Positions 1-16,207 of a DNA stretch of 49,775 nt are shown in pieces; position 1 is the stretch's first letter; each line of letters starts with the position of its first letter. The notes beneath the pieces are model-generated. The model made no database searches. It saw nothing but the letters and a program-made list of their open reading frames with translations, and was not told the origin of the DNA. This DNA comes from a virus (lineage: Duplodnaviria; Heunggongvirae; Uroviricota; Caudoviricetes). The stretch lies in IMG/VR virus record IMGVR_UViG_2630968800_000001, one strand, 5' to 3'. Made by a program: the position numbers and the translations under genes.

Positions 1-561
1 TCAAAACTGAAAGCGCATCCAGGCAAAGTACACATTGCCATTGTTGTAGGTACCCGGAATGTAGGTCATCTGAAAAGTCACTGGGCCATAACCCACGGAG
101 GCCAATGGCAGTAGAACCGGGAGAGGGATGTAATTCCAGTTATCGCGTGCCGTTACGCCAGCGGTGAATCCCAGACCTAAATGAAAATTTTCATCCGCCA
201 GCGGTCGCCAGGTACTTTCCCATCCGTATCCGGCAATCGGTTCCCATTTGTTCCACGAGTCCTTAAATGCCATGGCATACAGGCCATGCCAGTTTCCTTT
301 TTCATCCCAACGCGACAGGCCAAAACCGCCACCCCACGGTCGCTCGTTATAGCGATCGGTTTTTTCTTTGTCGTAAGCGAAACGTGCATGCCAGGTGATG
401 GCAGGAATATATAAATCATAATGTTCAGGCTGTTGCCAGGTTTGTGCAATATTTTCTCTAAACGTTGTCATCCTCTCATCTGCGTTAGCAAAAACTTTAC
501 CAACGCTGATTAACTGAATAAAAACAAAGGAAAAGATAGCGACATATTTACTCACGTTCAT
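1..561 (-). CDS. pagP: lipid A palmitoyltransferase PagP (CrcA)
   Basis: ORF translation from internal Met ([14 protein letters not shown]...YFAWMRFQF, 186 aa) recognised as PagP; ATG at 559-561, stop at 1-3. Confidence 0.93.
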
Positions 562-1149
562 TTGTGACCATAAAACATTTATCAAAAATCTACTACTAGC
601 ATAGCAAAGCTACAATTAACATAACCTTAATAGACCCAACATAAAGAATAATCTGAATAGCTGCTCTATTTATTTCCGCTTGTTCAAGTTAAATATTTCC
701 GCGCATCGATTAAAGATGATGCGTCGTTTTCTGCGATGGGAATAGTCAAAAAAGAAAAACCAAGTCTTTTTTGATGACAAAATGCAATCAAGGAAAAATT
801 ATTTTATTTTTTTAACGAGATACAACAATCATCTTAACGAAGTATATAATATATATCGTCAACCCATGCTCATATTAGATTATTTTTTGAGCGCACAGCC
901 GCAGCTAACACCATTGCAATTAACAAATTTGCATCAATCCACCATCAATTTACACACATTATTATGTGATAATTGCCAACCGCTAAATATGCGTTTTGTT
1001 ATCTATGTATAAAAACAGCAACTTCAATGTCTTAATGGCAGTTTTTCTTGATTTTAATCAGCATTCATCGCCAATTTATTGGGCATATTTTTTCCTTAAG
1101 CTTTAGGAAGTTTTTATTATTTACTTTGGGCCTGGAGACAGGAAAAATT

Positions 1150-2535
1150 ATGCTGACATTCATTGAACTCCTTATTGGGGTTGTGGTTATTGTGGGTGTG
1201 GCTCGCTACATCATTAAAGGGTATTCCGCCACTGGTGTGTTATTTGTCGGTGGCCTGTTATTGCTGATTATCAGTGCCATTATGGGGCACAAAGTGTTAC
1301 CGTCCAGCCAGGCTTCAACAGGCTACAGCGCCACGGATATCGTTGAATACGTTAAAATATTACTAATGAGCCGCGGCGGCGACCTCGGCATGATGATTAT
1401 GATGCTGTGTGGCTTTGCCGCTTACATGACCCATATCGGCGCGAATGATATGGTGGTCAAGCTGGCGTCAAAACCATTGCAGTATATTAACTCCCCTTAC
1501 CTGCTGATGATTGCCGCCTATTTTGTTGCTTGTCTGATGTCACTGGCCGTCTCTTCCGCAACCGGTCTGGGTGTTTTGCTGATGGCAACCCTGTTTCCGG
1601 TGATGGTAAACGTTGGTATCAGTCGTGGCGCAGCAGCTGCCATTTGTGCCTCCCCGGCGGCGATTATTCTCGCACCGACTTCAGGGGATGTGGTGCTGGC
1701 GGCGCAGGCTTCCGAAATGTCGCTGATTGACTTCGCCTTCAAAACGACGCTGCCTATCTCAATTGCTGCAATTATCGGCATGGCGATCGCCCACTTCTTC
1801 TGGCAACGTTATCTGGATAAAAAAGAGCACATCTCTCATGAAATGTTAGATGTCAGTGAAATCACCACCACTGCCCCCGCGTTTTATGCCATTTTGCCGT
1901 TCACGCCGATCATCGGTGTACTGATTTTTGACGGTAAATGGGGTCCGCAATTACACATCATCACTATTCTGGTGATTTGTATGCTGATTGCCTCCATTCT
2001 GGAGTTCCTCCGCAGCTTTAATACCCAGAAAGTTTTCTCTGGTCTGGAAGTGGCTTATCGCGGGATGGCAGATGCGTTTGCTAACGTGGTGATGCTGCTG
2101 GTTGCCGCTGGGGTATTCGCTCAGGGGCTTAGCACCATCGGCTTTATTCAAAGTCTGATTTCTATCGCTACCTCGTTTGGTTCGGCGAGTATCATCCTGA
2201 TGCTGGTATTGGTGATTCTGACCATGCTGGCGGCAGTCACGACCGGTTCAGGCAATGCGCCGTTTTATGCGTTTGTTGAGATGATCCCGAAACTGGCGCA
2301 CTCTTCCGGCATTAACCCGGCGTATTTGACTATCCCGATGCTGCAGGCGTCAAACCTGGGTCGTACCCTATCACCCGTTTCTGGCGTAGTCGTTGCGGTT
2401 GCCGGGATGGCGAAAATCTCACCATTTGAAGTCGTAAAACGCACCTCGGTGCCGGTGCTTGTTGGGCTAGTGATTGTTATCGTTGCTACAGAGCTGATGG
2501 TGCCAGGAACGGCAGCAGCGGTCACAGGCAAGTAA
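1150..2535 (+). CDS. dcuC: anaerobic C4-dicarboxylate transporter DcuC
   Basis: 461-aa polytopic membrane protein starting MLTFIELLIGVV..., recognised as DcuC; ATG at 1150 inside the longer track ORF. Confidence 0.93.
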   Translation: MLTFIELLIGVVVIVGVARYIIKGYSATGVLFVGGLLLLIISAIMGHKVLPSSQASTGYSATDIVEYVKILLMSRGGDLGMMIMMLCGFAAYMTHIGANDMVVKLASKPLQYINSPYLLMIAAYFVACLMSLAVSSATGLGVLLMATLFPVMVNVGISRGAAAAICASPAAIILAPTSGDVVLAAQASEMSLIDFAFKTTLPISIAAIIGMAIAHFFWQRYLDKKEHISHEMLDVSEITTTAPAFYAILPFTPIIGVLIFDGKWGPQLHIITILVICMLIASILEFLRSFNTQKVFSGLEVAYRGMADAFANVVMLLVAAGVFAQGLSTIGFIQSLISIATSFGSASIILMLVLVILTMLAAVTTGSGNAPFYAFVEMIPKLAHSSGINPAYLTIPMLQASNLGRTLSPVSGVVVAVAGMAKISPFEVVKRTSVPVLVGLVIVIVATELMVPGTAAAVTGK

Positions 2536-2543
2536 ATAGTAAT

Positions 2544-2569
2544 GCCGGAGGCAAGTTTCCTCCGGCTTT
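2544..2569. terminator. bidirectional stem-loop between convergent dcuC and dpiA
   Basis: GCCGGAGG-caagttt-CCTCCGGC hairpin followed by TTTA, lying between the two stop codons. Confidence 0.55.
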
Positions 2570-2575
2570 ATCATG

Positions 2576-2917
2576 TCACCCACTGTGGTATATGCGTTGT
2601 GGTCTGCCAACTTTGCCGTGAACAATTTCAGCAATAATCAGATGGCGGCTGGCGCAATATTCAAGATAACGCCTGGCAGTGGTGCGGCTGATGGTCAGTG
2701 CCTGCGCCACCGTTTCTGCCGTATGTTGCACACCAGGCTCTTTAAACAGTTTTCGCACCGCGTTTAGCGTCAAGGGGTCAATGCCGGTCGGCAGTTCGTC
2801 TTTGGGTTCACCGCGAGCATAGGCATTAAACATCTCATCAATTTGCTTCTGGCTGGCGCTATCAATACTTTCCAGCATATGTTTACGCTGGCGGAAACGG
2901 GTTAGCGTTTGCCCCAG
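2576..2917 (-). pseudogene. dpiA: response regulator DpiA (CitB), C-terminal 113 codons only
   Basis: Translation ...RFRQRKHMLESIDSASQ...GRPQRIYHSG matches the DpiA C-terminal half; homology stops at 2917 where the Mu-type terminus begins. Confidence 0.88.
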
Positions 2918-3254
2918 TGTATTGATTCACTTGAAGTACGAAAAAACCGGGAGAACATTGGATTATTCGGGATCTGATGGGATTAGATTTGGTGGGGCTT
3001 GCAAGCCTGTAGTACAAATTTTAGGCGTTAACCAATGAAACGCGAAAGATAGTAAAAAATTGCTTTTGTTTCATTGAAAAAACGAAAAACAAAAACACTA
3101 TAAATCATTTCAATCATAGCTTCAAAAAACGTTCAAAACCGATAACAACCAGGCTGTCACCAAATGACTCATATCACAAATCAGCTCATGCCGTTTAGGT
3201 ATGTTACATGTGTGATTATGTGAGGTGAAGTATGTTTTAGCTGGCTCATGGTTG

Positions 3255-3764
3255 TTATACGGCTTTTTTCGCATCTTGTGGTTCCAACAAAGGAGCTACA
3301 GGCTCTTCCTGTTTATGAACACCATACATTGACAAAATCTCTTGGCGAGTTTCTGGAGGTAATTTATGCAGCGCCAAAGCTGTTTGTAGTGTTTGGCGAT
3401 CAATACCCAGCGTTGCCAATAGGGTGTCAACGGAGATGGAGGGGCGTTCTTGCATTAATCCGGAAAGCCCATATTTAGCCATGTTTAGCTCTATCTCTCG
3501 GACTTCATTTTCTCCTAGTTTATTGATTAACAGGGAGAACATTTTCAATGTATCAGCATTCATTTCTTCGATAGCAATTTTTTGCATAGCCGGTATTGCC
3601 GGGATATATTCAACCCCAGGCCCGCGACGCCCTTCTTGTGAACGCTTCGGCCATCCTTCTTTCTTTGCTCGTTTATGCACCCCCTGTATTGTCCCAGGCA
3701 TTCCATCCAGTTCAGTAATTTGTTTGGGTGTCATCCACTGGTTTATCTCATTTGCGCTTTTCAT
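3255..3764 (-). CDS. Mu-type repressor c (diverged, D108-like)
   Basis: 169-aa leftward ORF with C-terminus ...RQEILSMYGVHKQEEPVAPLLEPQDAKKAV resembling Mu repressor c; position and orientation as in Mu. Confidence 0.7.
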   Translation of the reverse strand: MKSANEINQWMTPKQITELDGMPGTIQGVHKRAKKEGWPKRSQEGRRGPGVEYIPAIPAMQKIAIEEMNADTLKMFSLLINKLGENEVREIELNMAKYGLSGLMQERPSISVDTLLATLGIDRQTLQTALALHKLPPETRQEILSMYGVHKQEEPVAPLLEPQDAKKAV

Positions 3765-3935
3765 AAACTAAGTTTACCAGATTTATCTATATAAAAATCA
3801 ATGGATTACAAAATAAACCACATTAACTGATATAAACCGGTTTGGTTTATTTGGTAATGTATAAAACAGATAATCAAGACGAATTATTTGTTTTGGTAAC
3901 CCTTTATCATACGCAATATGGTTGGTGTGCGAAAG

Positions 3936-4172
3936 ATGAGTAACGATTGGCATCGGGCCGACGTGATTGCGGCCCTCAAAAAAACAGGAACCCCTCTGGC
4001 AAAATTGTCCAGACGTTCAGGTTATTCAACCGGGACGCTTGCAAATGCATTAGTCAGGCCATGGCCTAAAGGTGAACGCATTATTGCTGACGCCTTAAAC
4101 ATGAAACCTGAGGAAATTTGGCCTAGTAGATATCTAAGGGATCACAATGAGAGAGTGGATATCAGCAATTGA
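3936..4172 (+). CDS. ner: Ner-like DNA-binding transcriptional regulator
   Basis: [16 protein letters not shown]...TLANAL...WPKGE...IWPSRY matches the Mu Ner / Nlp family. Confidence 0.8.
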
Positions 4173-5778
4173 ATGCATGGGTTTATCTGGTTTACCTGGT
4201 TCATTAATGGGGGTTCACAAAAGAGCTCAGAGAGAAGGATGGCTCAAGAGAAGAAGAGAAGGAATTAGAGGGGTTGCTTACGAATACCATATATCTTCTC
4301 TTCCTAACATTGCTCGAGCTGAAGTTTTGCTCCAACAAGGAAAATTTAAAACCAGTCAGGGATGTTTTGAAATCGCCCGCCCCACGCTGGAAGCTCATGA
4401 TTATGATCGTGAGGCACTATGGAGCAAATGGGATAAAGCCAGCGATTCCCAGCGCAGCCTGGCTGAAAAATGGTTGCCCTCAATTCAGGCCACAGACGAA
4501 ATGCTGAACCAGGGGATTTCAACGAAAACGGCTTTTGCGACCGTTGCAGGGCATTACCAGGTCAGCGCATCCACTTTGCGGGACAAGTATTACCAGGTAC
4601 AGAAGTTTGCGAAGCCTGACTGGGCGGCTGCACTTGTTGATGGACGTGGAGCATCCCGTCGCAATGTTCACAAAAGTGAATTTGACGAGGATGCCTGGCA
4701 GTTTCTGATTGCAGATTATCTGCGACCGGAAAAACCCGCCTTCCGCAAATGTTATGAGCGTCTGGAACTGGCAGCCCGCGAGCATGGCTGGAGTATTCCC
4801 TCCCGTGCCACGGCCTTTCGCCGGATTCAGCAACTGGACGAGGCAATGGTTGTTGCCTGTCGTGAAGGTGAACATGCACTGATGCATCTGATACCGGCAC
4901 AGCAGCGAACTGTGGAACACCTGGACGCCATGCAGTGGATCAACGGCGACGGTTATCTGCATAACGTCTTTGTACGCTGGTTTAACGGTGATGTGATCCG
5001 TCCGAAAACATGGTTCTGGCAGGATGTGAAAACCCGAAAAATTCTGGGCTGGCGCTGCGATGTGAGCGAGAACATTGATTCAATTCGCCTCTCGTTCATG
5101 GATGTTGTGACTCGCTACAGTATCCCGGAGGATTTTCACATCACCATTGATAACACCCGTGGTGCTGCGAATAAATGGCTGACGGGAGGCGCGCCCAATC
5201 GCTACCGCTTTAAGGTAAAAGAGGACGATCCAAAAGGACTGTTTTTACTGATGGGTGCGAAAATGCACCGGACAAGCGTTGTTGCCGGTAAAGGCTGGGG
5301 CCAGGCAAAACCTGTTGAACGTGCTTTCGGTGTTGGTGGGCTTGAGGAATACGTTGATAAGCATCCGGCACTGGCTGGCGCATATACGGGGCCAAATCCG
5401 CAGGCAAAACCTGATAACTATGGCGACCACGCTGTTGATGCAGAGCTGTTTCTGAAAACCTTTGCCGAAGGTGTGGCGATGTTCAATGCCAGAACAGGCC
5501 GTGAAACAGAAATGTGCGGGGGCAAACTCTCGTTTGATGATGTTTTCGAGCGTGAATACGCCAGAACGATTGTGCGTAAGCCAACCGAAGAACAAAAACG
5601 GATGCTGTTACTGCCTGCCGAGGCGGTGAACGTTTCACGCAAAGGCGAGTTTACGCTTAAAGTTGGCGGCTCCCTTAAAGGCGCGAAAAACGTTTATTAC
5701 AACATGGCATTAATGAATGCCGGAGTGAAAAAAGTTGTGGTCAGATTTGATCCACAGCAGTTACACAGCACGGTTTAT
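4147..5778 (+). pseudogene. Mu-type transposase A, 3'-truncated by IS600
   Basis: 544 codons; from [21 protein letters not shown] to [14 protein letters not shown] near-identical to MuA as recalled, N-terminal domain diverged; stop codon TGA is the first 3 nt of IS600. Confidence 0.88.
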
Positions 5779-5842
5779 TGAGATAGCCTGAGTTTAACGG
5801 ACACTCCTTCCTGAAATAGAATGGCATCAGAAGGAGCTAATA

Positions 5843-6145
5843 ATGAGCAGAAAAACCCAACGTTACTCTAAAGAGTTCAAAGCCGAAGCTGTCAGAACGG
5901 TTCTTGAAAATCAACTTTCGATCAGTGAAGGCGCTTCCCGATTATCCCTTCCTGAAGGCACTTTAGGACAATGGGTTACCGCCGCCAGAAAAGGGCTCGG
6001 TACTCCTGGTTCCCGCACGGTGGCTGAACTGGAATCTGAAATTCTGCAACTGCGTAAGGCGTTAAATGAAGCTCGCCTTGAGCGCGATATATTAAAAAAA
6101 GCAACAGCGTATTTTGCACAGGAGTCGCTGAAAAATACGCGTTAA
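5843..6145 (+). CDS. IS600 OrfA (HTH transposase subunit)
   Basis: MSRKTQRYSKEFKAEAVRTV... 100 aa, typical IS3-family OrfA. Confidence 0.85.
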   Translation: MSRKTQRYSKEFKAEAVRTVLENQLSISEGASRLSLPEGTLGQWVTAARKGLGTPGSRTVAELESEILQLRKALNEARLERDILKKATAYFAQESLKNTR

Positions 6146-6180
6146 TCGAACAATGGCGACAACAATTTCCCATTGAAGCG

Positions 6181-6999
6181 ATGTGTCAGGTATTTGGTGT
6201 ATCCAGGAGCGGTTATTACAACTGGGTACAGCATGAACCCTCAGACAGAAAACAAAGTGATGAGCGGCTAAAACTGGAGATTAAGGTGGCACATATCCGC
6301 ACTCGCGAAACATATGGAACCCGGCGGCTCCAGACGGAGCTGGCAGAGAATGGCATCATCGTTGGTCGTGACCGACTGGCATGTCTTCGTAAGGAGCTGA
6401 GGCTACGCTGTAAGCAGAAACGCAAGTTCAGAGCGACTACGAACCCGAACCACAATCTGCCAGTTGCGCCAAATCTGCTGAACCAGACGTTCGCTCCTAC
6501 AGCACCAAATCAGGTCTGGGTGGCGGACCTGACGTATGTTGCCACACAGGAGGGATGGTTGTACCTCGCTGGCATCAAAGATGTTTATACGTGCGAAATT
6601 GTCGGCTACGCCATGGGAGAGCGCATGACAAAAGAGCTGACAGGTAAAGCCCTGTTTATGGCGCTCAGGAGCCAGCGCCCACCTGCCGGGCTAATCCACC
6701 ACTCTGATCGAGGTTCACAGTACTGCGCATACGATTACCGGGTCATACAGGAGCAGTCTGGTCTGAAAACATCAATGTCGCGTAAAGGTAACTGTTACGA
6801 CAACGCTCCGATGGAAAGCTTCTGGGGAACGCTGAAAAATGAGAGCCTGAGCCACTATCGTTTTAATAACCGGGATGAAGCCATCTCAGTAATACGGGAA
6901 TACATTGAGATTTTCTACAATCGTCAGCGTCGTCACTCTCGTCTGGGGAATATCTCCCCGGCAGCCTTCAGGGAAAAATATCATCAGATGGCTGCTTAA
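6181..6999 (+). CDS. IS600 OrfB (DDE integrase-core)
   Basis: 272 aa with DDE-type motifs (HSDRGSQY, NAPMESFWGTLK). Confidence 0.85.
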   Translation: MCQVFGVSRSGYYNWVQHEPSDRKQSDERLKLEIKVAHIRTRETYGTRRLQTELAENGIIVGRDRLACLRKELRLRCKQKRKFRATTNPNHNLPVAPNLLNQTFAPTAPNQVWVADLTYVATQEGWLYLAGIKDVYTCEIVGYAMGERMTKELTGKALFMALRSQRPPAGLIHHSDRGSQYCAYDYRVIQEQSGLKTSMSRKGNCYDNAPMESFWGTLKNESLSHYRFNNRDEAISVIREYIEIFYNRQRRHSRLGNISPAAFREKYHQMAA

Positions 7000-7042
7000 A
7001 AAAAGAACAAATGGTAGTGTCCGCTATTGCCAGTACACCTCA

Positions 7043-7241
7043 ATTCTTTGGCATTTTTTACCTCGTTACGCGCGTCTGTGGCTTTGCCAACGGATACTTC
7101 CGCGTGCGCACGAGTGAACCAGTGCGTGGCAACGTCTTCCTCCACAACATGACGGCCTTTAACAAACTCGCGCCGAGAACCGTCGGGAAGCGTGAGCACA
7201 AACGGGGTATGTACGTGTATTACTGCATCATTTTTTGCCAT
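7043..7241 (-). pseudogene. small head-module ORF truncated by IS600
   Basis: ORF starts at 7241 (MAKNDAVIHVHTPFVL...) and after 66 native codons runs into the IS600 right end. Confidence 0.4.
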
Positions 7242-7282
7242 CGGGTCATCCTTAATGGCCCCGCCAGGGGGCCATGTGGCTG

Positions 7283-8224
7283 TTAAATGCCATCAACGTA
7301 CGAAATGGTTTCTTTGTACACTGGCTCGACTGCACCCAGCTTGCCGTAGTAAGTGACGATCTGATACAGACCGCGATACTGCACCGGCACGCTCTGAAGC
7401 GGAACCAGCGGGTAGCGGACGTATTTTTTATCGTTGGTGTACGCAACTATGCGATCCTTATTCCCCACACCACGGCCTTTCAGCCATTTAACCGCGCGGA
7501 TATTCAGCGGAACACCGTTCTGGTGATAGCTGATGGTGTTGGTCTGAAGGTTCGTCAACAGGGACTGGTTACCTGCAGATGAAACGATGATGCTGGACAA
7601 CAGAGCAAACTGCTCAGGCGGGATCAGCAAATCACGCGGAACCACAGAGTAACCAGAAGCGGCCCACGCATCAGACAGCACCTGGTTAATGCTTGCGCGG
7701 ATTTCGTCCGGTGTTGAGGTTGCCCACGTTTTGGCAGCGTTGTTGACAGGCACGCCGTCCAGGGTAACAAGGCCTTTCAGGTTTAATGCGGAATCGCCAA
7801 CATATACCTGTTCATCGTTATCCATCTGCCATTTCAGTTGCATACCGTCATACTTCTGCGTATCAATCGGGCGGCCGACCTGCTGAGCAGCCTGCAATTC
7901 TATGACCGTCCAGCCAAGTTCCATCCCCCACAGGTTCAGCGGGTTACCGGATTTGCCGATATCCACGTTCACGCCAGCAATAGCGGTTGAGTCTTTGCCT
8001 ACCCAGTTTTTTCCATTCGGATTTGCGCCAGTACCCGCAGCGGCGAAGCTGGTATTCGTCCAGCTGGAAATGTCATCTGCGATGGAGGCGTCTTCACGCA
8101 GTTGAATATCGCGGCTCCAGGTGTACCCCACCAGTGGCAGGTTCAGCGTCTGGTCGAGTCTCTCCAGCTCCCCGATGAGAAAGGCACCAGAGCTGTCAAC
8201 GGTTGCCTGATCAAAAGTAATCAT
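7283..8224 (-). CDS. phage major capsid protein
   Basis: 313-aa ORF directly downstream of scaffold/decoration genes in a TerL-portal-MuF-scaffold-MCP order; followed by a GC hairpin at 7257-7273. Confidence 0.6.
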   Translation of the reverse strand: MITFDQATVDSSGAFLIGELERLDQTLNLPLVGYTWSRDIQLREDASIADDISSWTNTSFAAAGTGANPNGKNWVGKDSTAIAGVNVDIGKSGNPLNLWGMELGWTVIELQAAQQVGRPIDTQKYDGMQLKWQMDNDEQVYVGDSALNLKGLVTLDGVPVNNAAKTWATSTPDEIRASINQVLSDAWAASGYSVVPRDLLIPPEQFALLSSIIVSSAGNQSLLTNLQTNTISYHQNGVPLNIRAVKWLKGRGVGNKDRIVAYTNDKKYVRYPLVPLQSVPVQYRGLYQIVTYYGKLGAVEPVYKETISYVDGI

Positions 8225-8368
8225 TCGTCTGTTCCTTAAATCTTCCAGGAAATTTCTGCATTGCCGTCAGCATCACCGGCACCTGTGAATTCAGCGTTGG
8301 TCAGCACCACGTTTTTGCCACTGACTGACGTGGACATGAATCCACCCAGAGGCACTTTGATGGATTCA

Positions 8369-8725
8369 TCAGTGGAGATCGCCTTTTTTGATAGTGCTGG
8401 CATCAAAATCAGAACCGAGATTAACGGTCACGTAGCCACGCTTCATGGCGTCGCCCGGGAAGTTCTTGCCTGTTCCCACCTGGCGAACCATGTCCGGCTG
8501 CGACGTGGTCGGATAAGGGCGCACGTAGATCCCCTTCACCTTGTCTGCGGTATCACCATCTGCCAGCGGCACGAAAAAACCGTCATCATCGTATTTACCA
8601 GCCAGGCCATAGGCAGCGAAGGCGTTATCGGATTTAAGGACCACCGGTTCGACGGTTAAGTCCTGCGGGCGAGAGACAGCCCCGGCAATGCCAACAGGCA
8701 TCCGGTACAGAAATACATTATTCAT
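8369..8725 (-). CDS. putative head decoration/structural protein
   Basis: 118-aa ORF between scaffold-like and capsid genes; function by position only. Confidence 0.3.
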   Translation of the reverse strand: MNNVFLYRMPVGIAGAVSRPQDLTVEPVVLKSDNAFAAYGLAGKYDDDGFFVPLADGDTADKVKGIYVRPYPTTSQPDMVRQVGTGKNFPGDAMKRGYVTVNLGSDFDASTIKKGDLH

Positions 8726-8728
8726 TTT

Positions 8729-9949
8729 TTACCCTTTACGGTTTGCCCAGAATTCAGCGTTTTGTTTGTTCAGGGAAGCGATACTGGTCATGCCCATGTT
8801 TAGGCGCTGTGCATCGCCGGTGGTGGCGCGGGTGTTTCGCCCTTTGGCAACCTCAGACACGGCATTAAACGCCATGTCGACCGATTGTTTCGGTAATTTG
8901 CGGATATCCGCATCACCGACTATCTGGCGAACCAGCGTTTTGTCAGCAGAAGCCAGAACCTCGCGTTTGAACGCGGTCGGTTTCATCTTACGGCTCAGAT
9001 CGATACCCGGAACGATAACTTCGGCACGCCAGGCTGAGTCACCAGTAATCGTGGTTTCCTCTTCATCGTCCTCGCCGTCACCGGTCGGATTATCGTCAGG
9101 CTTATTATCGTTATCGCCCGTGGCATTTCTTTCCAGCTTAGCCAGCAGGGCTTTCAGTAATGTTTTGAGGTCATCATCACTGTCGCCGGTTGGATCTCCG
9201 CCCATCTCTGGTGCTTTGTCCGGTAGTGGTTGCTGCGGGGACAGGTTGATGTTGAGATTAACGCCCTGCGGCAAATCCCCCTCATCTCCTGTAACCGATG
9301 CGGGAGCCGACTCCACCAGTTCGTTCATGGTGTCGGCATCTCCTGTCTTGATGGCCGCACGCATGCGGTTCCACCAGTTTTTCTTTTGATTTGCCATTGT
9401 GTCTCTGTCTCCAATTGCACAACGATTTCCGGCTCTGCCTTTAGGGACAAGAGCCACATGGTTTCCGGTAATATCGACCTGCTCGGCTTTACCTGGCTCG
9501 GTCTGCTCGTACTCCGCGTCATAGCCGCACGACACTTCGCGCAGGCCATCTTCGATAAGCTGAATGGCGCTTTCGTCTTTGACGATAAGGTCAGCCAGCA
9601 TCAAATCAGACTGCTCACCCGTCCCGCGCCGGACATTCTGGAGGTGCCCGACAGCAAGCACTTTCCAGTTCTCGGGATTTACCAGCCGCACATTCCCGTT
9701 TTCATCTTCAGGATGCAGGATCGTGATGCTCATCCCTTCGAATGAGGCAAGCGTGGCCGGATGGAATACCTGCTCAGGAGAACGCGTGACGACTATTTCA
9801 ACGAACTTATCGGGTTTCAGTTTTGGCAGGTCATCAGCACCATAGAGCTGCTTACCTGTTCGTCCTATCGGCACGTCTTTGCACAGCAACGAGCCGTCAG
9901 CCAGGCGGTATCGGGTTTCCCCGAGCCTGGTCTCAAAAAAGTATTTCAT
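8729..9949 (-). CDS. putative prohead scaffold/protease-like protein (DUF2213-type)
   Basis: 406 aa with a low-complexity acidic, D/G/T-rich centre, placed between MuF-like and capsid genes. Confidence 0.45.
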   Translation of the reverse strand: MKYFFETRLGETRYRLADGSLLCKDVPIGRTGKQLYGADDLPKLKPDKFVEIVVTRSPEQVFHPATLASFEGMSITILHPEDENGNVRLVNPENWKVLAVGHLQNVRRGTGEQSDLMLADLIVKDESAIQLIEDGLREVSCGYDAEYEQTEPGKAEQVDITGNHVALVPKGRAGNRCAIGDRDTMANQKKNWWNRMRAAIKTGDADTMNELVESAPASVTGDEGDLPQGVNLNINLSPQQPLPDKAPEMGGDPTGDSDDDLKTLLKALLAKLERNATGDNDNKPDDNPTGDGEDDEEETTITGDSAWRAEVIVPGIDLSRKMKPTAFKREVLASADKTLVRQIVGDADIRKLPKQSVDMAFNAVSEVAKGRNTRATTGDAQRLNMGMTSIASLNKQNAEFWANRKG

Positions 9950-9952
9950 GGG

Positions 9953-10696
9953 TTATGCTGCCCTTTTCATTGCGAATGGAACGCGAACAAACACGATCTC
10001 TTTATAGCAGCGGCAGTTTGGCAGCTCGCCCGCGTGGCCGGTCATGCCGTCCAAAGTTGGAGGTGAATCCCAGCGGACGAATTTACCTTTCATGTGATCG
10101 TGGGAATCTCGGACATCGCCATCATCGGCTGTACGCCAAATATAACCATCCGAGCCAATAGCTATCGCTCGGGCCATATCCAGCGCGCCCGTTGCTCTTC
10201 CCAGTTCCGTTCGGGCAATCAGATCGGCCCTAGACTTAGCAACATCGCCGGTAGATGCAATCTCTTTAGCAAACTGCTCCGCCCGACCACCGGTGACAAC
10301 AGCCTCTATCGCTTTGTTCTGGATGTCGTACACCCTGTCTGCGGCCTCGAGAGGCAGAGATTTGATGTACTTGACCTGTTCGGCGATGATGGATTGCATC
10401 ACCTGGCCCACAGGAGCGCTTTCCACAAGATTGCGGAGCTCGCGACTGATGTTCTTGCTGTGTTGCCGCCAAACTTTCTCGTTCTGCCGGGTTAGGTCCG
10501 CAGTAAAGTTTTCCGCGACCTTTGTCGCCCAGGGGGTGATGATTTCACTGTAACGCTCCAGCGCCGCAATAATTTCCGTGATACTGTCATTTGAACCATC
10601 GTAGCGACCATTTACGATGTCTCCGACCGCCCTCGCTATCCTGCGTAGGCTGGTTCGATACCGGATTTCCGCCTGACGGCTCCTGCGGTTCGTCAT
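9953..10696 (-). CDS. Mu F-like minor head (morphogenesis) protein
   Basis: C-terminal ...DGYIWRTADDGDVRDSHDHMKGKFVRWDSPP... typical of the Phage_Mu_F family; start ambiguous (overlaps portal 3' end). Confidence 0.7.
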   Translation of the reverse strand: MTNRRSRQAEIRYRTSLRRIARAVGDIVNGRYDGSNDSITEIIAALERYSEIITPWATKVAENFTADLTRQNEKVWRQHSKNISRELRNLVESAPVGQVMQSIIAEQVKYIKSLPLEAADRVYDIQNKAIEAVVTGGRAEQFAKEIASTGDVAKSRADLIARTELGRATGALDMARAIAIGSDGYIWRTADDGDVRDSHDHMKGKFVRWDSPPTLDGMTGHAGELPNCRCYKEIVFVRVPFAMKRAA

Positions 10697-12053
10697 CAGG
10701 TTCGCCGATGCCGGGCGGCGCTTCATCTTCGGCATTCTCGATGTCCTCGTTGGTAATGGATGCCCCTATGCCGGTTACGTCAGAATTTTCTCGCAAATCA
10801 GTCATAGCGGCTTTCAGTGTCATCAGACCATCACCCAGCGCCGTACTGATTGCGTTGGTGGTGTTTAACGCCACCGTTGAGCGATCGACATCAGACATTT
10901 GCCAGAGCGGGTTAAACTCAAACGTGAAATCGTCCGGCAGCGGCTTGCCAAGTTCCGAACGATGCATGATGTCCAGTATCCGCCGCACCGGAAGACGTAA
11001 ACGCCTCTCCTGCAACGAACTGATGCGATCGTAATAGTTGGCAAGGTCTGCATCACCGGTAGAAAATCCTTTCGGGGACTGTCCGAACAACCGCACCAGT
11101 GGGATACCAACAGCGCCACTAATCTGTTCTGCAAACTGCGAAAGGATGTCATCCAGACCACTGAAGCTGTACTGATGGGTTTCAAACTTATCCCGCGAGT
11201 CCATGAGCGTCATGCCTTCATTACTCTGGAACTGTCGAATCAGGTCGATATTCTTCAGCAACGCTTCATACGCAGGACCACCAAGTGCGATAAGCTCGCG
11301 TAGCTTCTCCACGCTGTAGGTACGCAAATGCGCCTTGTAGACCAGCTGCGCCGCGCCGACAGTAGCGCTGTCGAACGCGGTAAGACGATCCCAGATACGC
11401 TCTACAACCGACATTCCCCATTCGTTCTCGGTCATCTTCTGCTGAAATGGCAACGTGACGCCATCAAAGCGAATCAGGCGACTGTGATGAATGCGCCAGG
11501 CAGGAATTCCCGTTGCTGTGGTCACCACATCGTAAAACTCAGGTTTACCCAGGTCCGGCCCCATATCTTTAATGCGGCGGGTCAGTGCCGGGTCGACCAT
11601 CCAGCGGTCGAGCGGGAGAATCCCCTTAAACTTGCCCTTACCGATGGTTTCGGGTCGCAGCGGGGTCATTGGTGCCTGCCCCTCAATCATGATGAAACCC
11701 ACCGCGCCGCCGTAGAGGCGCGACCATTTCAGCACGTCATTCAGCGCATCCCAGATTTGCAACTCATCCAGTTGTGATTCGAGAATGCCACGATCTTTTG
11801 CATCAATTTCCGAAGTGATGCGAATGCCTTTGCGGGTCATATCATCCGGGATAGCATCGACTGCTTCGCCGATGATCCAGGATGAACGATAGGACCATTC
11901 CACCAGCATGCGGTTACGACTGGTGAAATTAGCCCGGTAGGTGGATGCTGAGTGCTGGTTAGGTGTCTGCATCCCTACTCGGGCAATAAAATTCTCATAA
12001 CCATCAGCTGTGGCCTGCACAGTTCGCCGCAGGGCTTGTTTGTTTCGTGCCAT
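10587..12053 (-). CDS. phage portal protein
   Basis: 488 aa with acidic C-terminal tail; start ATG overlaps TerL stop (TGATG) as usual for terminase-portal pairs. Confidence 0.75.
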   Translation of the reverse strand: MARNKQALRRTVQATADGYENFIARVGMQTPNQHSASTYRANFTSRNRMLVEWSYRSSWIIGEAVDAIPDDMTRKGIRITSEIDAKDRGILESQLDELQIWDALNDVLKWSRLYGGAVGFIMIEGQAPMTPLRPETIGKGKFKGILPLDRWMVDPALTRRIKDMGPDLGKPEFYDVVTTATGIPAWRIHHSRLIRFDGVTLPFQQKMTENEWGMSVVERIWDRLTAFDSATVGAAQLVYKAHLRTYSVEKLRELIALGGPAYEALLKNIDLIRQFQSNEGMTLMDSRDKFETHQYSFSGLDDILSQFAEQISGAVGIPLVRLFGQSPKGFSTGDADLANYYDRISSLQERRLRLPVRRILDIMHRSELGKPLPDDFTFEFNPLWQMSDVDRSTVALNTTNAISTALGDGLMTLKAAMTDLRENSDVTGIGASITNEDIENAEDEAPPGIGEPDDEPQEPSGGNPVSNQPTQDSEGGRRHRKWSLRWFK

Positions 12054-12781
12054 CAGGCCTGTCTCCCCAGCTGTTCCCAGATATCCAGCGATGTATCGAT
12101 TGGCGCGAAGGCCATAATGAATGCATCAGCAACGTTTGGTGACGGTATCTCGCGTTTTGCGAGGTCTTTTTTACTTTCGACCATCACACGTCCGTTACGG
12201 TCGAAATCACGATGAGGTGTTGTCAGTTCCAGTTTCAGCTTTTCAAGCAACGGACAACGAGAATCTATGCTGATCAGCTCATCCACAGGATACTGTTCTC
12301 CGTTGTTAATGGCGTTAAACGTATTTCTGAAACGGTCAGCCACCATGCCTGAGCCTTAAGATTTGCGAAAAAGTCTTTGTTGGGGATGCCGTTGTACTCG
12401 TCATCTGGCTCATGCACACCAGCACCGGCGTTAAACCTCTGGTAATTCACACGTCGCGCGTATGCGTTCTCGCTCTTCCGGTCAGCGTTAATTTCAGAGA
12501 ATTTAGCACCGGCAGACGCACCAACACCGATAGAGTCGTAAACAATATCTGCTTCACGCTCCAGCGCCGCCTGATAAGTACGCTGGCAGCTCTTCAGTAA
12601 TTCATCTTCTTTGGCCTTCCATTCGTCGGCCCAGAAAACAACGGATCCGTGACGGTAAACGTTAGCGCACTTATCTGTACCACTGTCAGCCACGTCAAAG
12701 CCAATACGCTTTCTTCCACTGGGTTCGAAATTTAACGTTTTGTGCGCATCCACTGCGGCTTCTATCCAAGACAGTTTGATG

Positions 12782-12786
12782 ATTGC
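12782..12786. repeat. IS2 target-site duplication ATTGC (copy 1)
   Basis: Identical 5-mer flanks both IS2 ends. Confidence 0.8.
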
Positions 12787-12797
12787 TGGATTTGCCC

Positions 12798-13703
12798 CTA
12801 TATTTCCAGACATCTGTTATCACTTAACCCATTACAAGCCCGCTGCCGCAGATATTCCCGTGGCGAGCGATAACCCAGCGCACTATGCGGATGCCATTCG
12901 TTATAATGCTCGAACGCCTCTGCAAGGTTCTTTGCTGCCGTTAACCCGTCTGGTTTGGGCATGATACTGATGTAGTCACGCTTTATCGTTTTCACGAAGC
13001 TCTCTGCTATTCCGTTACTCTCCGGACTCCGCACCGCCGTGTTCTTCGGTTCAAGTCCCAACATCCGGGCGAACTGGCGTGTTTCATTAGCCCGGTAGCA
13101 TGAACCATTATCCGTCAGCCACTCCACTGGAGACGACGGAAGATCGTTGCCGAAGCGGCGTTCCACCGCTCCCAGCATGACGTCCTGTACTGTTTCACTG
13201 TTGAAGCCGCCGGTAGTCCCCGCCCAGTGCAGTGCCTCACGATCACAGCAGTCCAGCGCGAACGTGACACGCAGTCTCTCTCCGTTATCACAGCAGAACT
13301 CGAACCCGTCAGAGCACCATCGCTGATTGCTTTCTTTCACGGCCACTCTGCCTGTATGTGCCCGTTTCGATGGCGGTACAGCAGGTTTTCGCTCAAGCAA
13401 CAGCGCATTCTGGCGCATGAGCCGGTAAACACGTTTGGCATTGATCGCAGGCATACCATCAAGTTCTGCCTGTCTGCGAAGCAGCGCCCATACCCGACGA
13501 TAACCATACGTGGGCAGCTCTCCGATAACATGGTGTATACGGAGAAGCACATCCGTATCATCAGTGTGACGACTGCGGCGGCCATCCATCCAGTCATCGG
13601 TTCGTCTGAGAATGACGTGCAACTGCGCACGCGACACCCGGAGACAACGGCTGACTAAGCTTACTCCCCATCCCCGGGCAATAAGGGCGCGTGCGCTATC
13701 CAC
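12798..13703 (-). CDS. insD: IS2 transposase InsD (OrfB)
   Basis: 301 aa recognised as IS2 InsD. Confidence 0.9.
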
Positions 13704-14026
13704 TTTTTTGCCCGTCCATATTCAACGGCTTCTTTGAGGAGTTCATTTTCCATCGTTTTCTTGCCGAGCAGGCGCTGGAGTTCTTTAATCTGCTTCATGG
13801 CGGCAGCAAGTTCAGAGGCAGGAACAACCTGTTCTCCGGCGGCCACAGCAGTAAGACTTCCTTCCTGGTATTGCTTACGCCAGAGAAATAGCTGGCTGGC
13901 TGCTACACCATGTTGCCGGGCAACGAGGGAGACCGTCATCCCCGGTTCAAAGCTCTGCTGAACAATTGCGATCTTTTCCTGTGTGGTACGCCGTCTGCGT
14001 TTCTCCGGCCCTAAGACATCAATCAT
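13661..14026 (-). CDS. insC: IS2 InsC (OrfA)
   Basis: [24 protein letters not shown]... 121 aa recognised as IS2 InsC. Confidence 0.9.
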
Positions 14027-14117
14027 CTGTTCTCCAATGACTAGTCTAAAAACTAGTATTAAGACTATCACTTAAATAAGTGATACTGGTTGTCTGGAGA
14101 TTCAGGGGGCCAGTCTA

Positions 14118-14122
14118 ATTGC
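14118..14122. repeat. IS2 target-site duplication ATTGC (copy 2)
   Basis: Identical 5-mer flanks both IS2 ends. Confidence 0.8.
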
Positions 14123-14735
14123 CGCATCATCATCAGACTCCGGAACGCCCTCATACACATGTTTAAAACCATCCGGATCACGGCGTCGCGCCGCGTCGAT
14201 AACCTTAAGCATGGTGTCAGACAGAAACGGATTTTCGTCATAGTTAATTTTGCGGATGAGAGTGCCTTCGGGCGGATCAACAACGAAGTTGCGCCAGACG
14301 AAATCAGTAACAAGTCCGGGGTTGAATATGAACCAGCATTCCGAACCCTCTTTACGGATCGTTGGCTCCAGAATTTTCCACTGGTATTCCGTCAGTGCGT
14401 GGGCTTCTTCCAGCCACAACATATCGATCCCCTCCAGTGACTTAATTTCTTCGATGTTGCGCCATAATCCATAAAAAACAAATTCCGAGCCAGTAACCCG
14501 GTTAATGATTTTGTTGTTCAGAATACGGAAACGGTGCCGCAGACCAAACCTGTCTATCTGAATTTTGAGCAGGGTATACACCGACTCTTCGATTTTATTC
14601 TGGATCTGACGGGCACAACAAAAACGCAGGGTGTATTTATTCGACAGAAATATGGCAATGCCAGCGGCATCCCATGATTTTGACGATGACCGACCACCAT
14701 AAAGCACTTTGTTACGTGCCCGCATAGTCCAGAAA

Positions 14736-15500
14736 CTACGTAAAGCCGGATTCAGCGTCGGTTTGGATGTCAGAGTAGAAGTCATTGAGGTCACGCTCTC
14801 CATTGCCATCATCAATACCTGCATCACGGCGAAGACGATCAGCCTCCAGAGACACCTTATCAGTGGCGGCCTTGCGGTAGGCTGTATCAGCAAATATTTT
14901 TCCTACCGTCGCAAGCGTGCCAACGATGGACTCAATACGAACTGTATTGCGCATCATTGCTTTCTCGGCGGCGCTGATATTTTCAATCAGCATCTTCCTT
15001 TCCTGGTCCCCATTAGCATCTTCCAGCGACACCAACCACCGACCAATATTCTCTGCAGCGACAAGGTTGTTAGCACGAAGGCGAAATAATTCGTCCTCGA
15101 GCGTCAACGCTTTAGCGTCCTCTATCACCTCATCTTTGAGCAGAAGGCGACGGGCATAACCACCGTGTTTTAATGCCTGCTGGTTACCGGGTTGGAATGG
15201 GTTAGTCGGGGGATCGGTACGCATTCCGCGTATCGGTTTCGTATCCGGTGTAGATTCTGTTTTTAGTTGCGTACTTTTTTGTGTAAGGCCAGTAATGGCA
15301 GGCTTTCTGCTGGTACGCACTTTCCTTTTTTGCGTACCATTTTTGCAAACCTGCGTACCGCCACTGCGTGCCCAATCAAGCTTTTTGGCCCTCTTCCTGA
15401 TAGCCCCTTCTGTAACGCCGTATTTCTCGCCTATATCACGGAGGCTAAGGACTCCGGCCCGGTATGCCGATTCGATGGCCTCCCAGTCCGGTTTTGCCAT
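14736..15500 (-). CDS. terminase small subunit
   Basis: 254 aa, N-terminal HTH-like segment (LSLRDIGEKYGVTEGAIRKRAKK), immediately upstream of TerL. Confidence 0.65.
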   Translation of the reverse strand: MAKPDWEAIESAYRAGVLSLRDIGEKYGVTEGAIRKRAKKLDWARSGGTQVCKNGTQKRKVRTSRKPAITGLTQKSTQLKTESTPDTKPIRGMRTDPPTNPFQPGNQQALKHGGYARRLLLKDEVIEDAKALTLEDELFRLRANNLVAAENIGRWLVSLEDANGDQERKMLIENISAAEKAMMRNTVRIESIVGTLATVGKIFADTAYRKAATDKVSLEADRLRRDAGIDDGNGERDLNDFYSDIQTDAESGFT

Positions 15501-15697
15501 GATTATGCTTCCTGTGATTTACTGTTATCGCTGCCTGTCACAATAGGTTGCTTTAATTCTTCCTCATCACTCACTCCTGCGACGCTCCGTGGCAGGGCCC
15601 CCCACAGGAGTACCTTGTAAATGTAAGGTGTTTAAGCCTAAATTAAGTCGTATCACGGTTAAATAGCAAAGAAAAATTCACAGAAGGAAAGACATTG

Positions 15698-16207
15698 ATG
15701 GAGTGGATAAATGCTTTGATGAACTATTTTGTACTTCATCCATATCGCCTATGGGGGCTTCTTTTTATAATAGCGTTCACAAAATCCACTTTACTCATTT
15801 CGGCGATATTGCCACCAGCATCAATTATGATGGCCACTGTAATTACAGTCAGCAAGACGACTCTTTCACCATGGGAAGCTGGAATCACGGTCATGAGTGG
15901 CGCATGGTGCGGTACTATCGTTAATTACCATCTTGGTATAATAATTGGGCATATCCCTCAACTTGCATGTATAATATCGAGCCGTTCCAATACAATAGAA
16001 CGGGTTCGCCTTCAGTTGCAAAATAACTCTGTGTCAATACTTTTCACTTCGCGCTTTATCGCCGTGCTGCGTTACATTGCTCCTTTGGTGGCAGGAATGT
16101 TGCAACTTCATCCAGTGAAAGTGTATACAGTGAGTCTGATTTCAGCTGCTAGCTGGTCAGCACTTTATGTTGGTAGTTTTAGCTTCGTGTTGCCTTTTTT
16201 TAGCTAA
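15698..16207 (+). CDS. DedA/YqaA-like small integral membrane protein (moron)
   Basis: 169 aa, multiple hydrophobic helices, LLISAILPPASIMMATVI... pattern like the YqaA/DedA family; AT-rich; convergent with Rz in the position bor occupies in lambda. Confidence 0.45.
   Translation: MEWINALMNYFVLHPYRLWGLLFIIAFTKSTLLISAILPPASIMMATVITVSKTTLSPWEAGITVMSGAWCGTIVNYHLGIIIGHIPQLACIISSRSNTIERVRLQLQNNSVSILFTSRFIAVLRYIAPLVAGMLQLHPVKVYTVSLISAASWSALYVGSFSFVLPFFS

Follow-up and report, generated by a model that had tools for sequence, protein, structure and literature searches.

A truncated Mu-type left end with a rare immunity module in the dpiA gene of Shigella flexneri

The described systems closest to the locus studied here are the transposable phages Mu (NC_000929), D108 and SfMu, and a 31-kb Mu-like prophage of E. 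coli UMNF18. S. flexneri is the source of SfMu, whose authors reported that many serotypes harbor cryptic Mu-like remnants (PMC4406740). The UMNF18 prophage (NZ_AGTD01000001.1, 3086976-3118051) is inserted in yphC, has both Mu ends and is flanked by a perfect 5-bp duplication, TCCGG. Decay of Shigella genomes mediated by insertion sequences has been described for S. flexneri 8401 in comparison with strain 301 (PMC1550401).

The locus reported here is the dead left-hand part, 2.9 kb in length, of a Mu-type transposable phage in S. flexneri dpiA. It resembles Mu in its identical terminal bases, the positions of the sites L1-L3, the gene order c (leftward)-ner-A and the DDE triad, and reveals 91.7% identity in the left end and 97.7% in the A core. 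In contrast, its repressor (35%), Ner (68%) and domain I-alpha of A (46%) are far less similar to those of Mu; it stops at A codon 545 and is devoid of B, the late genes and the right end. The UMNF18 prophage shares the repressor (84.6%), Ner (98.7%) and A (95.8% over the 544 residues compared), and its c and ner have the same lengths as those of the remnant. However, it occupies another insertion site, and its left end and repressor C-terminus diverge, with 81% identity to the remnant compared to 92% for Mu. Since this relative has both ends and a target duplication, the rare immunity type is one carried by genuine transposable prophages. D108 and SfMu follow the same mosaic rule, with an A core 97-98% identical to that of the remnant and an immunity module unlike that of Mu, but the immunity type which they share is a different one (c 29-30%, Ner 57% identical). 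As in known cases of Shigella decay by inversions and deletions at IS600, IS1 and IS629, an IS3-family element that lacks a target duplication links unrelated DNA, and genes run in inverted order with respect to K-12; nothing differs in kind. The remnant is ordinary Shigella genome decay, and its sole unusual trait is the rare repressor (immunity) type.

The window, i.e., the whole stretch of 49.8 kb that was analyzed, matches S. flexneri G1663 (CP007037) with 100% identity. Its features around the remnant are the following:

2576..2917, minus strand: dpiA 3' remnant, codons 114-226 plus stop
2913..2917, plus strand: target pentamer CCCAG, adjoining the Mu left end (read from the sequence)
2918..3254, plus strand: Mu-type left end (attL), starting with 5'-TGTATTGATTCAC; Mu nt 1 aligns to 2918
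3255..3764, minus strand: repressor gene c, 169 aa, intact; Pfam HTH_Tnp_Mu_1
3765..3935, no strand assigned: divergent c-ner intergenic region, matching the position of Mu O1-O3; presumed operators and early promoters
3936..4172, plus strand: ner, 78 aa, intact; Pfam HTH_35; 26-nt overlap with the start of A
4147..5781, plus strand: truncated transposase A', 544 codons corresponding to MuA 1-545; HTH_Tnp_Mu_1, HTH_Tnp_Mu_2, DDE_2 and partial Mu-transpos_C
5779..7042, plus strand: IS600 copy 1, 1264 bp, with orfA (5843-6145, 100 aa) and orfB (6181-6999, 272 aa)
7043..12050, minus strand: head-gene block of an unrelated phage, not Mu, abutting IS600

A BLASTN comparison of K-12 positions 648000-657500 with the window gives a single match of 2918 nt (98.8% identity), which stops exactly at 2917, corresponding to dpiA nt 340; translation places the break between R113 and L114. 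Mu nt 1 lies at 2918, with neither overlap nor gap. The pentamer CCCAG at the junction fits 5'-C-Py-(G/C)-Pu-G-3', the target preference of Mu. The junction involves no repeat and was also found in assembly GCA_902502535.1, which makes two NCBI assemblies in total. Within the 113 retained DpiA codons, the sole Pfam match is HTH_64, the output domain, which binds DNA. Missing are the receiver domain with its phospho-acceptor Asp, the start codon and the promoter, so the remnant is a pseudogene fragment whose function is presumably lost. Our literature search returned nothing specific on dpiA/citB pseudogenes in Shigella or on a Mu remnant at the dpiA locus. The locus documents one specific pseudogenization event in S. 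flexneri, and the dpiA::Mu and A'::IS600 junctions provide a clean molecular marker. It also indicates that transposable phages, and not lambdoid ones alone, contributed to gene loss in Shigella. In E. coli, a DpiBA-dependent response to beta-lactams is known, and loss of DpiA might affect it. Beyond correct annotation, the importance of the locus is small.

The left end carries the terminal 5'-TG and putative MuA-binding sites L1, L2 and L3 at the spacing of Mu. Scanning the whole window with the published consensus for MuA-binding sites, allowing at most one mismatch, gave three matches where 0.39 are expected by chance, and two of the three lie at the positions of L1 (2928-2944) and L2 (3032-3048). 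L3 (3072-3088) aligns with its Mu counterpart with one extra substitution. The block of high similarity extends beyond attL into the 3' end of c (2918-3363 against Mu 1-447, the source of the 91.7% given above). Many short-read contigs start at position 3215, and no repeat explaining these starts was found in the window.

Downstream of the left end, Pfam domains and open reading frames agree on a leftward winged-helix repressor, a rightward ner and a DDE transposase A. The last approximately 36 codons of the repressor are Mu-like, while the remainder is of a distinct immunity type. Its identity amounts to 35.1% with Mu c, 30.2% with SfMu c and 28.7% with D108 c, and none of the phage records matched it above 36%. 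Ner is 67.7% identical to that of Mu and 57.1% to that of D108. On the DNA level, the block 3364-4326 has no match to D108 or SfMu, its match to Mu is limited to 192 nt within ner (68%), and it is 89.5% identical to the UMNF18 prophage only, the single occurrence among 5426 complete E. coli genomes. Close relatives of the module are this prophage and proteins assigned by name to Salmonella enterica. The repressor and Ner sequences of the remnant are found unchanged on at least 1000 contigs, almost all of which are named Shigella. Over 57 aa, the N-termini of the repressor and of A are 42% identical (E 2e-16); such a pairing is expected of immunity modules of the Mu family and supports a Mu-type module. 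In the intergenic region 3765-3935, TTTGGTAA / TTACCA motifs recur, and an inverted repeat of 16 nt is present. From these repeats and the position, operators and early promoters may be guessed to lie here; promoter and terminator scans of 2900-4200 remained at chance level. Judged by sequence comparison, the module (3364-4326) constitutes a rare fourth type. Repressor, operator, ner and the N-terminus of A, all retained, would form a natural fourth variant of Mu immunity and enhancer recognition, and comparisons with it could help to understand how repressor and transposase evolve together on common operators. In the SfMu survey, the c-ner primers target SfMu sequence, to which this block gives no BLASTN match, and they would probably miss it.

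Of the MuA domains, the truncated transposase still has I-alpha, I-beta, I-gamma, the DDE core and a portion of II-beta; the remainder of II-beta and the whole of domain III are missing, and no alignment extends past residue 545. Divergence from MuA is concentrated in I-alpha (35 of 76 residues identical), while the other domains range from 93/98 to 73/73. The core (4327-5780, codons 62-545) is close to Mu, D108 and SfMu alike, and the triad is intact, D268, D335 and E391 aligning with D269, D336 and E392 of MuA. Domain III of MuA is required for tetramer assembly, contact with MuB and remodeling by ClpX. Of a complete transposition-competent prophage, the 663-aa A, MuB, the right end with R1-R3 and the late genes are missing. 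With a single end and a transposase without domain III, the remnant should be immobile.

Most of this arrangement had been proposed in the first-pass annotation, and it holds up: dpiA homology ending at 2917 and a Mu-family left terminus at 2918, the order of leftward repressor, ner and A, a transposase body close to MuA combined with a diverged repressor and N-terminal DNA-binding domain, a reading frame ending after 544 codons in the TGA that begins IS600, local absence of B and of all late genes, and inactivation of the citrate regulator. When IS600 is removed in silico, A does not continue in frame, and the claim of a truncation stands.

IS600 copy 1 matches the annotated IS600 of S. flexneri 301 pCP301 from end to end at 99.8% identity, and its imperfect terminal inverted repeats, starting with TGAG, agree at 19 of the first 30 positions. 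Its first three bases form the stop codon of A' (5779-5781); as the TG of the element also represents the next Mu bases (TGC), the junction, at 5778-5780, can be placed only to within 2 nt. A simple insertion of IS600 is expected to generate a 3-bp direct target duplication. Neither copy 1 (flanks TAT / ATT) nor IS600 copy 2 (GGG / AAC) reveals one, which points to later rearrangement and leaves the identification as IS600 unaffected. The DNA from position 7043 on is 95% identical to Escherichia phage vB_EcoM-689R2, a non-transposable phage with cI/cro, Q and terminase genes, and BLASTN found no Mu match in 7043-12050. This block represents a third phage type, not lambdoid, and hence more than one rearrangement is needed. 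The missing duplication and the different phage starting at 7043 suggest that the rest of Mu was removed or relocated by IS600-mediated rearrangement. The initial description of the phage as cut by IS600 is thus right insofar as A' is truncated at the element, but a simple insertion does not account for the flanks and the foreign phage on the opposite strand. Three contigs were read out of ten matches, from the few candidates collected in a search for C-terminal MuA fragments joined to IS600, and none had such a junction. One (L013) starts with what we take to be sequencing-adaptor sequence, another (L014) is joined to presumably an IS10/Tn10-type end, and the third (L015) is a short contig with A split in two.

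Integration of a Muvirus into dpiA with subsequent truncation mediated by IS600 explains these observations best, and we hold it with high confidence. According to this scenario, a temperate Muvirus would have transposed into dpiA of an S. flexneri ancestor between codons 113 and 114, at CCCAG, its left end oriented towards the 3' half of dpiA. The phage would already have been a mosaic, nearly Mu in left end and transposase core, with a rare heteroimmune part comprising the DNA-binding portion of the repressor, the operators, ner and domain I-alpha of A, which binds operator and enhancer. Later, a copy of IS600 would have come to lie at A codon 545, and a rearrangement at IS600 would have joined this point to an unrelated prophage, thereby removing or relocating the 3' end of A, B, the middle and late genes, the right end, the dpiA 5' half and dpiB. 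We infer integration by transposition from one end, since neither the Mu right end nor the second CCCAG copy of the expected 5-bp duplication was found in the window, which is also devoid of the dpiA 5' half, dpiB and cit genes. A predicted fusion of DpiA 1-113 with LGEAAHEKRESVSR, as would arise where the dpiA 5' part meets the Mu right end, was not found in a collection of 5.8 billion proteins: none of the 76 matches carried the Mu tail, all of them being common DpiA fragments or alleles with a frameshift, e.g., P0028, which ends in ...IAYNGWGKR. P0081, a piece of DpiA that breaks off at codon 66, was rejected as a reciprocal junction, as it sits on an unrelated 3.4-kb contig.

Would a less eventful history suffice? 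A whole Mu-like prophage simply interrupted by IS600, with the remaining part of A as well as B and the late genes beyond the element, is suggested by the frame of A stopping exactly at the IS600 terminus. Yet comparison of whole Mu with the window leaves the sequence after 5780 without a match apart from the short similarity described at the end of this section, and the absent duplication, the missing Mu right end and the opposite-strand phage from 7043 onward speak against this reading as well, so that its probability is next to nil. It is also very improbable that the junctions are assembly chimeras at repeated IS600 copies. Shigella genomes contain many copies of the element, at which short-read contigs break. 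However, the dpiA/Mu junction is repeat-free and present in two assemblies, and independent short-read Logan assemblies from separate sequencing runs read across the A'/IS600 junction; the IS600/7043 junction was seen in the closed G1663 chromosome only.

The remaining alternatives concern the immunity module. Descent from a D108-type phage with D108 immunity draws on the fact that the remnant diverges from Mu in the same module as D108 does, namely repressor, ner and the N-terminus of A. The D108 comparison in the first-pass annotation holds solely as an analogy for the location of the divergence. Repressor and Ner are both closer to Mu than to D108, the left end shares 79% identity with D108 compared to 92% with Mu, and 3364-4326 has no BLASTN match to D108 or SfMu; on the sequence level, the D108 assignment is refuted, and we give it hardly any credence. 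A different proposal is that c, operator, ner and A' were kept as a working cassette for superinfection immunity against Mu-like phages of the same type, acting by repression and by interference through a truncated transposase that binds the phage ends. Full-length c and ner with the lengths seen in the two-ended UMNF18 prophage, the exact proteins on numerous contigs, and the retention of all DNA-binding domains in A' would fit. On the other hand, clonal descent alone accounts for a conserved 0.5-kb gene in a young lineage, the promoter scan is at chance level, and the rarity of the type, absent from sequenced phages, implies a small selective benefit; we regard such a retained function as unlikely. 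The broader notion that the stump represents a fourth, uncharacterized heteroimmune Muvirus class in the specificity of repressor, operator, Ner and I-alpha, and may serve S. flexneri as a working immunity cassette, appears unlikely as well, if marginally less so.

Integration into dpiA followed by IS600-mediated truncation also has to be seen in its genomic setting. On its left side the window is colinear with K-12 in descending order, to 654,201, this segment consisting of pagP, dcuC and the dpiA 3' half. On its right side it runs in the ascending K-12 direction, starting at 807,328, and the lambda att core lies beside ybhB. Opposite orders are the expectation if an inversion of approximately 150 kb relative to K-12 ends within the mosaic, and the rearrangement was probably part of this inversion. 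We infer both this mechanism and the order of events; under the inversion model, a surviving right end would read ...GCGCCGCTTCA-CCCAG-dpiA 5'. Outside the remnant, BLASTN with whole Mu identified a single similarity in the window, 98 nt of tail-fibre-assembly sequence (46785-46882, 76% identity) located within the lambdoid prophage.

The stump at 2918-5781 is real and correctly located: it is what remains of a decayed Mu-family prophage, inactivates dpiA and was itself truncated by an IS600-associated rearrangement. It represents an ordinary case of genome decay in Shigella. The mildly new point is that it preserves what, by sequence, appears as a rare fourth immunity type.

To the left of the stump, a single block of 2918 nt matches K-12 648000-657500 (98.8% identity); it spans pagP and dcuC and ends exactly at 2917, nucleotide 340 of dpiA. 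The break lies between R113 and L114 (K-12 DpiA ...KPIAYER/LGQTLTRF...). Codons 114-226 are kept and match, in Pfam, the DpiA-type HTH output domain only; what is lost comprises the receiver domain, start codon and dpiB-dpiA promoter side, and neither the dpiA 5' half, dpiB nor the cit genes were found anywhere in the 49.8-kb window. Therefore dpiA is a pseudogene, which bears out the inactivation proposed in the first-pass annotation.

Mu nucleotide 1 aligns at 2918 without overlapping the K-12 match, and Mu 1-447 is 91.7% identical to 2918-3363. Scanning the window with the MuA-site consensus as printed in the D108 record (at most one mismatch) gave three matches against 0.39 expected, two of which fall at the L1 (2928-2944) and L2 (3032-3048) positions; L3 (3072-3088) aligns to Mu L3 with one extra substitution. 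The five host bases adjoining the left end, CCCAG, fit C-Py-(G/C)-Pu-G, the preferred Mu target pentamer. The stump carries three genes:

3255-3764, minus strand (leftward): repressor gene c, 169 aa, Pfam Mu winged-helix domain
3936-4172, plus strand: ner, 78 aa, Pfam match
4147-5781, plus strand: truncated transposase gene A', Pfam HTH_Tnp_Mu_1, HTH_Tnp_Mu_2, DDE_2 and partial Mu-transpos_C

A' corresponds to MuA 1-545 and conserves the DDE triad of MuA (D269, D336 and E392) as D268, D335 and E391. It covers the first 50 of the 61 positions of Mu-transpos_C and is devoid of the end of domain II-beta and of all of domain III. MuA requires domain III to assemble the tetramer and cleave, to contact MuB and to be recognised by ClpX. 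Since only one end is present and the transposase has no domain III, the element should be immobile.

Compared with the reference phages and with a related prophage of E. coli UMNF18, the stump is a mosaic.

Identity of stump segments (nucleotide) and products (protein) to related phages
2918-3363, attL and last ~36 codons of c: Mu 91.7%, D108 79%, SfMu 82%, UMNF18 81%
3364-4326, rest of c, intergenic control region, ner and A domain I-alpha: UMNF18 89.5%; Mu 192 nt at 68% (ner) only; D108 and SfMu no match
4327-5780, A core: Mu 97.7%, D108 97.4%, SfMu 98.1%, UMNF18 96.8%
Repressor c: Mu 35.1%, D108 28.7%, SfMu 30.2%, UMNF18 84.6%
Ner: Mu 67.7%, D108 57.1%, SfMu 57.1%, UMNF18 98.7%
A domain I-alpha: Mu 35 of 76 residues

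Thus, the divergence of the repressor and the A N-terminus noted at first pass holds, but its attribution to D108-type immunity does not: 3364-4326 has no D108 match, c is less similar to D108 (28.7%) than to Mu (35.1%), and Ner reaches 57.1%. Judged from sequence, the immunity module is a separate type. The N-termini of its repressor and of A are similar (42% over 57 aa, E 2e-16), a pairing that is the hallmark of Mu-family immunity modules.

This immunity type is rare. Among phage records, the best match to the repressor has at most 36% identity, and the immunity DNA block occurs in one of 5426 complete E. coli genomes. A large protein collection yielded only a handful of further repressor clusters; those at 85-87% identity are either unnamed or bear the name Salmonella enterica, and one 80% fragment is named E. 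coli. The sole E. coli relative with this type is UMNF18, where a 31-kb Mu-like prophage resides in yphC (positions 477-31552 of locus L016, from NZ_AGTD01000001.1). Both Mu ends are present there, together with a perfect TCCGG duplication, which places the immunity type among genuine transposable phages. The UMNF18 prophage is decaying too, with a partial tail sheath gene and two frameshifted baseplate genes. That the stump acts as a functioning immunity cassette is an unsupported and unlikely possibility.

At its right border the stump meets IS600 (5779-7042; 1264 bp, 99.8% identical to the annotated IS600 of pCP301). Mu reads ...ACGGTTTATTGCTAC and the window ...ACGGTTTATTGAGATAGCC, with TG common to both, and the A' stop codon TGA is the first triplet of IS600. 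The A frame does not continue after in silico removal of IS600, and non-Mu phage DNA begins at 7043. The A gene had been described as cut by IS600. It does end at the element; a simple insertion, however, is contradicted by the flanks TAT (left) and ATT (right), which form no 3-bp duplication, and by the unrelated phage DNA beyond. The cut has to be understood as a rearrangement through IS600. When the whole Mu genome was compared with the window by BLASTN, the only further match was a tail-fibre-assembly similarity of 98 nt (76%) within the lambdoid prophage, and the window holds no Mu right end.

The neighbouring DNA comprises the following features:

7043-15500, minus strand: remnant 95% identical to Escherichia phage vB_EcoM-689R2, with major capsid, scaffold/protease, Mu-F-like head protein, portal and terminase genes
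15695-16207, plus strand: VTT/DedA-family membrane protein gene, between the two phage remnants
23648-24911, same orientation as the first copy: second IS600, differing at 9 of 1264 nt
46953-48716, minus strand: ipaH effector gene, at the tail-fibre end of the lambdoid prophage at the right end of the window
~49193-49207: right att core of this prophage, GCTTTTTTATACTAA, adjoining ybhB

vB_EcoM-689R2, which encodes cI/cro, Q and terminase, is a non-transposable phage. Its remnant is without tail genes and is cut by IS600 at 7043 and again by another IS3-family element (~12798-14071) in the terminase gene. The second IS600, between the lysis and terminase regions of the lambdoid prophage, is flanked by GGG and AAC, again no 3-bp duplication, and probably took part in a rearrangement. 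The ybhB side is the classical lambda attachment site.

The left flank (1-2917) follows K-12 from 657,117 descending to 654,201, and the right flank (49194-49775) ascends from 807,328. The two flanks have opposite K-12 polarity, and therefore an inversion of ~150 kb relative to K-12 probably ends inside the prophage/IS mosaic. A single IS600-mediated inversion of this size, running from Mu A to the prophage cluster at att-lambda, would account exactly for the observed layout. It would place the A 3' end, B, the late genes, the right end, the dpiA 5' half and dpiB at the reciprocal junction, unless they were deleted later; protein searches for the products of that junction, a weak test, found none. 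Comparable IS-mediated inversions have been described in S. flexneri (PMC1550401).

CP007037.1, the Shigella flexneri G1663 chromosome (PMC5429569), encodes the exact 544-aa product of 4147-5778 at locus L006, which is 100% identical to window 1-15781. The genes upstream (dacA, lipB, lipA, tatE, crcB, cspE, pagP) are the K-12 dpiA neighbourhood in reverse. The dpiA/Mu junction is also present in assembly GCA_902502535.1, and independent short-read assemblies read through the A'/IS600 junction. Repressor and Ner sequences identical to those of the stump are found on at least 1000 contigs, strain M90T among them, and nearly all of these are named Shigella flexneri or Shigella. GenBank labels for the stump genes are generic, e.g., 'transposase [Shigella flexneri G1663]' or 'Repressor protein', and our literature search found no paper describing the locus. 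Cryptic Mu-like remnants are known in many S. flexneri serotypes from the description of SfMu, where the survey used SfMu-specific c-ner primers (PMC4406740), which probably would miss this immunity module.

Logan contigs from S. flexneri runs (L008 and L009, with 18 and 1 further similar places) all start at window position 3215, 40 nt downstream of the stop codon of c. The window contains no repeat that would explain the break; the shared start may be due to a further Mu-like left end located elsewhere in these genomes, or to an artefact of the graph.
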